From Lama glama (taxonomy: Eukaryota), in NCBI GenBank assembly GCA_028534125.1, contig CM052825.1, forward strand, positions 25,978,001 to 26,042,000: a DNA stretch of 64,000 nucleotides, written 5' to 3'. Below the pieces are notes generated by a model, which worked only from the letters and a program-made list of their open reading frames with translations, was not told where the DNA came from and did not search any database. The translations under genes were made by a program, and so were the position numbers. Positions 6,765-9,109 of the stretch are shown in pieces; the first letter of the stretch is position 1; every line of letters starts with the position of its first letter.

Positions 6765-6920
6765 NNNNNNNNNNNNNNNNNNNNNNNNNNNNNNNNNNNN
6801 NNNNNNNNNNNNNNNNNNNNNNNNNNNNNNNNNNNNNNNNNNNNNNNNNNNNNNNNNNNNNNNNNNNNNNNNNNNNNNNNNNNNNNNNNNNNNNNNNNNN
6901 NNNNNNNNNNNNNNNNNNNN
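6765..6920. other. Assembly gap (N run) covering the STUB1 start codon
   Basis: N run in sequence. Confidence 1.
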
Positions 6921-7199
6921 GGCCCGCCCTGCGCCCGCAGCCCGAGCCCGCGATCCGCTCGGGCCCGGCCCAGCACTCAGCCACCGGAACTTCCGGTCGC
7001 GCGGGTGGGCGGGGACAGAGGGGTGGGCGGGGCCGCGCGTGCACCCGAAGCACGTCGGAGGCGGGGCAGGCAGGGAGTACGCACTCAAAACAACACCACG
7101 CGCGGCATCTAAATCTGAGAAGCCCGGAGTTGGTCCTGACTGAATCCCGCCCGGGCGCTCCAACGCCGCACCTCCGAGGCCCCGCCTCGGCGCGTAGAC

Positions 7200-8476
7200 A
7201 TGGCGGAGTCCTGTGGGCTTTGGGACTGTGAGGACCCGAGCCGCTGGGCCGCTGTCCTGAAGCGCCACCCGGAGGTGCTGCGGACGCGCGCGGGCCCTCG
7301 GGGACGGTTGGAAGCCCTGGACAGATGGTAGGGCTGTGGAAGGATCGGGCGGGCGGGCGACTTTCTTTGTCCGGACTCCCCGTCACCGCCCTTCCCCAGG
7401 TATCGAGAGGAGTTGCCTGCGGCCATCAAGGGCCGAGTAGAGAAGCACGTGACACGAGATGACCTGGAGCAGTTGCTGGCGTGGAAACTGGCAGTGAGGC
7501 GCTTCCCACGTGGGGGGTGGAGTCTCCTCCAGGGGCGGGGCACAGCCTCGTGGGCGTGACTTCCTTCTGGGCGGGCCCTCCTCCTTGAGGTGGACCCTCG
7601 CGGCGTGGGCGTGGCTTCCTCCTGGGAGCCGAGACCCCGACGAGGTCTACCAACCCTGAACCCTGACACGACCTGGCCACAGAGGGGCCTTTTCCGGCCG
7701 CGCCTGCAGCAACTCGTGACCGTCAACTCCCCGGAGCTGGTGGTGCAGCGTTCGGCCGCCGCTTTCCGCCTCCTGCCAGACATGCATGCAGCGGTCATGG
7801 AATTGTGCGCTCTCCAGGGTGTGGGCCCCACTACTGCCTCGGGTTAGTCGGGAGACCTGGGCACGCCGGCGGGGTTTAGGGCGGGACCTGGCCTATTAGC
7901 GTCCTTATCTGTGAAGTTGCCTAACGGCTACGCACATGACACCACACCGAGATCATTGGTAAGGGTGGCCCCAGGCTGAGTCTGTCCTGGGACTGATGGG
8001 GCCTGAATGCTGGCCCTTCACTGCCCGCAGCGATCCTGGCTGCTGGAGCTCCCGAGGTGGCCGCTTTCATGTCTGAGGAGGCAGTGGCCGCAGTGCCTGG
8101 CTTGCCAGCCCTGCAGTACACTCTCAAGCACTATCTGCTGTACTTGGGCAGGGTGCAAGAGCGTGCCACAGCCCTGAGCCGAGGTGAGGAGACTGACGAT
8201 GGTGGCCAGGGAGGGCATCCAGGACCCTGGTCAGGGTAGAGTGTGCACAGCTATCCAGCAGGGTAGGGTGGCCAGGGCCCCAGAGACCCAGACTCCCTCC
8301 GCTCCTCCCTAGGCAGGGCCTCAGGGCTGTGGACCCCTCACCACGTGGAGACAGCACTGTGGACATAGGCTATGGGGCAGAAGCTGTGCCCTGATCTACT
8401 GCCTGATCTCAGTCCCAGCCCAGCCACCCCCGACAACACCAGGCCAGCCAAGAAGCGCAGGACCCAGGCGGACTAA
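7200..8476 (+). CDS. Amun/zgc:112496-like HhH DNA-glycosylase-fold protein; exons 7200-7327, 7400-7493, 7683-7842, 8031-8183, 8313-8476; in-frame TAG at 8366-8368 (196 aa truncated; 232 aa if that codon is read as Trp)
   Basis: Strong Kozak (gacATGG); four GT-AG introns with matching phases (2,0,1,1); HhH motif LCALQGVGPTTASAIL; WKLARGLFRPRL; C-terminal PAKKRR; AATAAA at 8581-8586. Confidence 0.85.
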
Positions 8477-9109
8477 CTTGGCTGTGGCCCAGAACCTGCT
8501 CACCTGCCATATGACCTTAGGCTGCAAGTGTCTCTGGACAGCAGGCTGGCAGAGCAGGAGGCTGGCTGCTGCAGAAGCTCAATAAATGCTTATTGTACTC
8601 ACATGTGATCCTGAGGCCCACAACTCTCCCCAGGGGCTCCCACCTCCCACACAGAGGTACCTCCTGCCAGATGCAGAGGATCAAGGTGGGGGAGCCCATG
8701 CTGCCCACATGGAGGGAAGGGCCCTCACAATTTGTTTAGCCAGTGGGGAGAGCCCAGATCAGCCCCCAAAGTACCAGTACAGGTCCCTGATGCTGTGTAA
8801 AATATTTATTCATTCTCCAAAAAGGCTCAGACTGCAACTCTTGGAGGAGAGGCTGGGCACAGTCTCCTCTGGGGCCACCCTTGGGGACCCCCAACACACA
8901 GCCCAGTCCAGCAGTCCTTCCCCCCAGGCCTGGGAGGGGGCAGCCAGGGCTGATGTAAGGCTTGGCCTGGACTTGGCCACTGGGGCCACCTGACCCCGCG
9001 GGGAAGAAGTAGCCTCCAGACGTACATTCACAGAGGGTGGACATGCAGACCTGCCTGGTGGCTGGCCCACAGATGCTGCACCCTGGCTATTGTGGCCCTG
9101 GGGATCCTG

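Follow-up and report, generated by a model that had tools for sequence, protein, structure and literature searches.

Lineage-specific unitary gene loss by nonsense mutation is a known general class of event. The gene considered here, found in a 64,000-nucleotide stretch of the Lama glama genome (hereafter, the window), belongs to the zgc:112496/CG2446-like protein family, for which we know of no established activity. Source names for family members include zgc:112496, 'CG2446-like' (cow LOC516108), 'CG2446-PC' (snake), and 'STUB1-DT' (hedgehog, at NCBI). CG2446 is given as Drosophila Amun in PMC3944433, a later text portrays Amun as a nuclear regulator that has a glycosylase domain (10.1101/2025.04.04.647281), and the cow gene is reported to be expressed in adult tissues by qPCR (PMC9682410); the orthology with Amun is taken from source names rather than from a comparison with the Drosophila sequence. 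A profile search returned 3063 relatives at E ≤ 0.001, and the Atlas search returned only the same uncharacterised family. The listed matches include orthologues of ~225–240 residues from ruminants, pig, hippo, equids, some bats, beaver, sirenians, and shrews, and equally from marsupials, monotremes, reptiles, amphibians, and fish. No report of the stop described below, or of loss of this gene, was found in the literature that was searched, which is largely open-access; gene-loss tables in supplements might already list it.

The window copy lies on the forward strand, as do all features given below, and its five exons, with GT-AG splice sites throughout, encode 196 amino acids up to an in-frame TAG, or 232 if the TAG is read through. 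Coding exon 1 of this zgc:112496/LOC516108/STUB1-DT orthologue (7200..7327, ATG at 7200) has the same limits as in the RefSeq alpaca model P0039. Exon 2 (7400..7493) was delimited by its splice sites and its match to the hippo orthologue, exon 3 (7683..7842) holds most of a putative helix-hairpin-helix (HhH) motif (~codons 112–127, 7794–7842; PF00633 E-value 0.0045, below the cut-off), and exon 4 (8031..8183) contains codon 143. The last coding exon of the ancestral frame (8313..8476) shares 88% identity with hippo residues 177–232, with one TAG inside. Overall, these limits reproduce P0039 at 195 of 196 residues. Exon 4 matches members of the zgc:112496/CG2446-like family (E-values down to 1.6e-21) and is 100% identical to the alpaca RefSeq model and 98% identical to dromedary, which places the window among South American camelids; all five exons match the hippo orthologue, and the 196-aa alpaca model is 86% identical to hippo and ~50% identical to fish and reptiles.

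The gene is positioned head to head with a TPR + U-box gene, which we take to be STUB1, and tail to tail with a rhomboid gene, presumably RHBDL1. A short, GC-rich divergent promoter region (6765–7200, with 6765–6920 masked) is common to the gene and its TPR + U-box neighbour. Such a divergent promoter may keep the gene transcribed after its function is lost. All three camel models lack exon 1 (7200–7327), each with a different N-terminus, and cetacean models start with an unrelated N-terminus; these odd N-termini represent either annotation trouble in the GC-rich region or further lesions.

The TAG forms codon 197 (8366..8368) in the context TGG ACA TAG GCT (8360–8371), exactly as a preliminary description of this DNA had reported, and the 35 sense codons said to follow it (8369..8473), ending in PAKKRRTQAD before a TAA (8474..8476), were confirmed. 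The 36 codons from the TAG onwards can be paired 1:1 with the C-terminal residues of the camel, hippo, cow, pig, horse, and bat orthologues, showing that the open tail is ancestral coding sequence rather than a chance frame, and the same alignment identifies the TAA as the ancestral stop. Exon-by-exon translation also bore out that the rest of the window copy has no further stop or frameshift. The suggestion that the TAG derives from TGG (Trp) agrees with the orthologue comparison, in which the orthologues do not all terminate at this codon: Trp is found at 197 in 54 of 55 placental models, a hand-picked set with the last exon in frame, leaving out exon-skipping isoforms and short fragments. 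The only exception is alpaca P0039, which ends at T196 and has the 196-aa length that had been predicted from the frame. Dromedary, Bactrian, and wild camel models read WTWAMG, with Trp at 197; for the camels this is seen at the protein level only, and TGG is the sole codon for Trp. Given Trp197 in three camel species and a stop in the alpaca model, the stop most likely arose on the South American branch.

Whether the TAG could be a base-call error, as the preliminary description allowed, was addressed with independent sequences. P0039 and the window disagree at residue 120, but P0039 too stops after T196, and the presence of the same stop on another haplotype makes an assembly error or a private variant unlikely. 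A contig of DNA run X1 (7323–8650; one contig, four runs examined) differs from the window at 7760, 7762, 7763, and 7849 and agrees with the TAG at 8367. We found no support for a base-call or assembly error in these data, and with the stop present in both the alpaca model and the X1 contig this explanation can practically be set aside. Codon 197 has undergone a genuine germline nonsense change.

In the X1 contig, a net deletion of 2 nt in exon 3 (7760..7763, codons 100–101, where the window is intact) shifts the frame into a predicted stop at codon 142, which lies 107 nt upstream of the last junction. The boundary for nonsense-mediated decay (NMD) usually lies 50–55 nt upstream of the last junction, and from its sequence this allele is predicted to be an NMD-type null; the frameshift comes from one contig (word depth 7.19) obtained from one of the four runs. 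The other three runs, X5, X9, and X14, yielded no contig here, which does not prove absence. At least three distinct haplotypes (the window, the RefSeq alpaca model, and run X1) end at codon 197, with the proviso that X1 may represent the source animal's second haplotype. More broadly, of 24 listed runs, 14 DNA runs contain all 54 sampled words of 8031–8600; these 14 come from 12 samples, five studies, and four organism labels, which are coded. Under random sampling, position 8367 would escape every sampled word with a probability of 3.5%. Since runs with the most complete content are preferentially listed and each of the 14 is flagged as a possible source, these counts show spread and not fixation.

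That same listing would hide carriers of TGG, which leaves room for a different reading, namely that the TAG is the loss-of-function allele of a polymorphism that segregates in a gene which still functions, with TGG alleles common and the TAG spread between domestic and wild camelids through hybridisation or incomplete sorting. The lack of a second lesion in the window would fit such a polymorphism, as would the state of its conserved positions: of the 67 sites kept by at least 95% of 71 non-placental vertebrates, seven are altered in the window copy and six each in cow and hippo, which amounts to no clear excess of decay. However, the window, the RefSeq alpaca model, and the X1 contig all carry the TAG on three different haplotypes, four organism labels contain all sampled words, and no South American camelid model with Trp197 is among the matches listed. 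We consider a segregating polymorphism of this kind unlikely for these reasons.

Our preferred reading, to which we assign a probability of about 0.72, is that the TAG is a loss-of-function allele in South American camelids that likely inactivates a single-copy glycosylase-fold gene apparently dispensable in placentals, with pseudogenisation under way. No paralogue was found in the animal's own genome, which is possibly incomplete: all 13 candidates were scored, and the five matches were all exons of this locus. The proposed course begins with a G-to-A transition in codon 197 after the split from Old World camels. With its stop in the last exon, the mRNA would escape NMD and give a 196-aa product whose terminal helix is two turns short and which lacks both the ordered segment to ~210 and the basic tail. 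This product would probably be unstable or inactive and would not be actively imported, and under relaxed selection further lesions would be starting to accumulate. All of this appears to be ordinary lineage-specific gene loss, although RefSeq still annotates the alpaca gene as protein-coding and gives it four isoforms.

A single lesion does not require the very recent inactivation that had been proposed. Assuming neutral rates of 1–3e-9 per site per year, together with assumed weights for indels and transitions, a 588-nt frame has a 33–69% chance of staying free of a second lesion for 5 My, and the mean wait for such a lesion is 4.6–13.7 My. The run X1 haplotype, moreover, is already frameshifted. 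In our best reading, pseudogenisation is not necessarily recent, and relaxation of selection may predate the stop, judging from residue comparisons. Two residues common to the window and camels, L77 (7689–7691) and Q119 (7815–7817), replace basic residues kept in 79 of 81 and 81 of 81 vertebrate orthologues, respectively. In the South American copy, T124 (7830–7832) replaces an Ala that is invariant in 81 of 81; camels instead have S127L.

The preliminary description had the stop remove a predicted nuclear localisation signal (NLS). The NLS-like tail is indeed conserved: 79 of 81 vertebrate orthologues have a basic cluster within their final 30 residues, and 108 of 128 distant homologues have one beyond position 195. 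PAKKRR (8444..8461) is a predicted monopartite NLS, and the camelid 232-aa frame contains no K[KR]x[KR] cluster other than its KKRR at 225. The basic tail is lost as claimed, but the account was incomplete since the last helix is also cut. In the AlphaFold model of the hippo orthologue (pLDDT 89.3), the last helix spans residues 187–203, and the chain is ordered to ~210 (pLDDT 97 for residues 191–200 and 93 for 201–210) and disordered after ~211. The TAG falls within this helix, two residues past W195, and the 35 formerly coding codons comprise the helix end, the short ordered segment to ~residue 210, and the disordered tail. Moreover, the 196-aa product is 21.7 kDa, and a protein of this size is small enough for passive diffusion into the nucleus. 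Because the last helix is cut and the product could diffuse, loss of the NLS is probably not the main effect of the stop.

The truncated product keeps the putative HhH motif and the E191-x-x-L194-W195 segment of the last helix (8348..8362; placed by the vertebrate orthologue comparison and the hippo model), in which E191 and W195 are invariant (81/81 vertebrate orthologues). It was modelled with the same helices (pLDDT 90.1, pTM 0.88), which speaks against a folding defect, though structure models of this kind are insensitive to truncation. Together with the small size of the product and a shrew orthologue that has no basic tail, these features would be expected of a tolerated or functional short form, with a folded core that is nuclear by diffusion or cytoplasmic, from a gene still under selection. 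Comparison with distant homologues argues against such a form: W or F is present at position 195 in 128 of 145, and all 128 carry at least seven further residues, with none ending sooner. A predicted frameshift null is also present on the TAG background, and A124T affects a site that is Ala in every one of the 81 vertebrate orthologues. A functional short form is accordingly quite improbable.

Recovery of the tail by readthrough or splicing around the TAG, yielding a full-length or compensating protein, was also considered. The tail frame remains open, and the RefSeq alpaca isoforms X1, X2, and X4 bypass the TAG through an acceptor at 8413, using an alternative last exon (8413..8585). With regard to readthrough, the earlier judgement that TAG-GCT is not a readthrough context stands: it is UAG-G, which differs from the leaky context UGA-CUAG described in 10.1101/2021.04.18.440353. 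No stable structure was found 3' of the stop, where the predicted RNA fold is weaker than that of 198 of 200 shuffles (z +2.07), and our rate estimate implies that a 35-codon tail would be expected to stay open over a few My without selection. With regard to splicing, the 8413 form is in another frame and lacks the entire last helix as well as the basic tail. A similar alternative form is seen in pig and warthog, both with Trp197, and it is consequently not a compensation. Rescue of the protein by either route is very improbable. In six RNA runs, 0.26–0.48 of the sampled words were present, where the canonical form would give an expected share of 0.71 and the 8413 form one of 0.52; isoform use and related-species origin give the same signal, and these shares carry no weight in the argument. 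As a side observation, the TAA of the alternative-frame isoforms (8583–8585) lies inside an AATAAA poly(A) signal (8581..8586), which is unusual for a functional mRNA, and an in-frame acceptor at 8424, used by no model, would keep the basic tail and delete the last helix.

To place the family by structure, the model was compared with known folds. The matches ranked 1–16 are all HhH-GPD glycosylases, the best being OGG2 (Tm1821, 3n0u) with Z 10.4, rmsd 4.1, and 166 aligned residues; this Z score is below the tool's caution level for helical proteins (~13) and is read at the fold level only. Foldseek returned no match at E ≤ 0.001, with OGG2 enzymes ranked first. Sequence searches gave one PDB match (E-value 0.89) and, in NCBIfam, only weak HhH-type matches. 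PF00633 scored 20.3 bits in hippo and 13.9 bits in the alpaca model (cut-off 24), and the motif is visible as LxGVGPxTA. At the fold level, the models point to a two-lobed helical HhH-GPD product with OGG2 as its nearest relative. Model residue 201 aligns with hOGG1 residue 325, which suggests that E191 and W195 would correspond to Gln315 and Phe319 of hOGG1 if the register, derived from the ends of the aligned range, runs free of gaps. Gln315 and Phe319 are described as a base-contacting pair of hOGG1 (PMC3397491).

Position 143 (8075–8077) is the putative catalytic aspartate site, 19 residues after position 124, as Asp268 follows Lys249 in hOGG1. Asp occupies it in 135 of 145 distant homologues and, among placentals outside the cetartiodactyls, in 16 of 18 models; the models of white rhino and elephant have His. 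Glu is found in the window and throughout the cetartiodactyl models (37 of 37), a clade-wide change at the most telling site of the protein.

Decay at the 67 conserved sites is uneven among placental mammals. Elephant, douc langur, and black rhino models deviate at 16–18 sites and three cetaceans at 10–13; bats and equids deviate at 3–5, and the range over bats, equids, manatee, cow, hippo, and pig is 3–7. The decayed-looking models in elephant, rhinos, langur, and whales suggest that the gene is dispensable in placentals; poor predicted gene models could explain part of the decay in these other mammals. No named mouse, rat, carnivore, or ape protein is among the matches listed (best 120 of 597; 73; up to 15 members per cluster), an absence that suggests, but does not prove, further losses. 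We tentatively raise the possibility that a eukaryote-wide OGG2-like nuclear protein was lost in parallel, with Asp-to-Glu in the cetartiodactyl ancestor and then separate decay in whales, rhinos, elephants, primates, and South American camelids. If so, the camel/alpaca pair would be a dated natural knockout for finding the substrate and the reason for dispensability. Three metagenome matches to the codon context were dismissed as chance, with no similarity beyond 24 bases. For annotation, the four RefSeq alpaca isoforms, all without the ancestral C-terminus, probably do not represent functional proteins. On its own, the stop is a modest finding; the function of the family and the pattern of loss pose the more interesting question, to which this locus adds one more case of what looks like recurrent loss of a glycosylase-fold gene.

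Compared to known systems, the gene resembles the zgc:112496/CG2446-like family over its full length, but the end of the last helix and the C-terminal basic cluster are encoded downstream of the TAG and would be missing from the product, and it differs at L77, Q119, T124, and Glu143 (the last as in all 37 cetartiodactyl models). With the STUB1-DT locus, whose name the hedgehog orthologue bears, it shares the divergent position beside a TPR + U-box gene; human STUB1-DT is annotated as non-coding. Unlike OGG2 and the wider HhH-GPD superfamily, it has Ala or Thr at the putative catalytic-lysine position, and the conserved catalytic Asp of the superfamily is replaced by Glu in cetartiodactyls; the family has a long basic tail, whereas OGG2 has a terminal lysine. 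With unitary gene loss by nonsense mutation, the locus shares a single-copy gene, a clade-shared stop, a second lesion on one haplotype, and a sister clade intact at codon 197. It differs from that class in having its stop in the last exon, with a transcript that should persist according to prediction and an annotation that is still coding.
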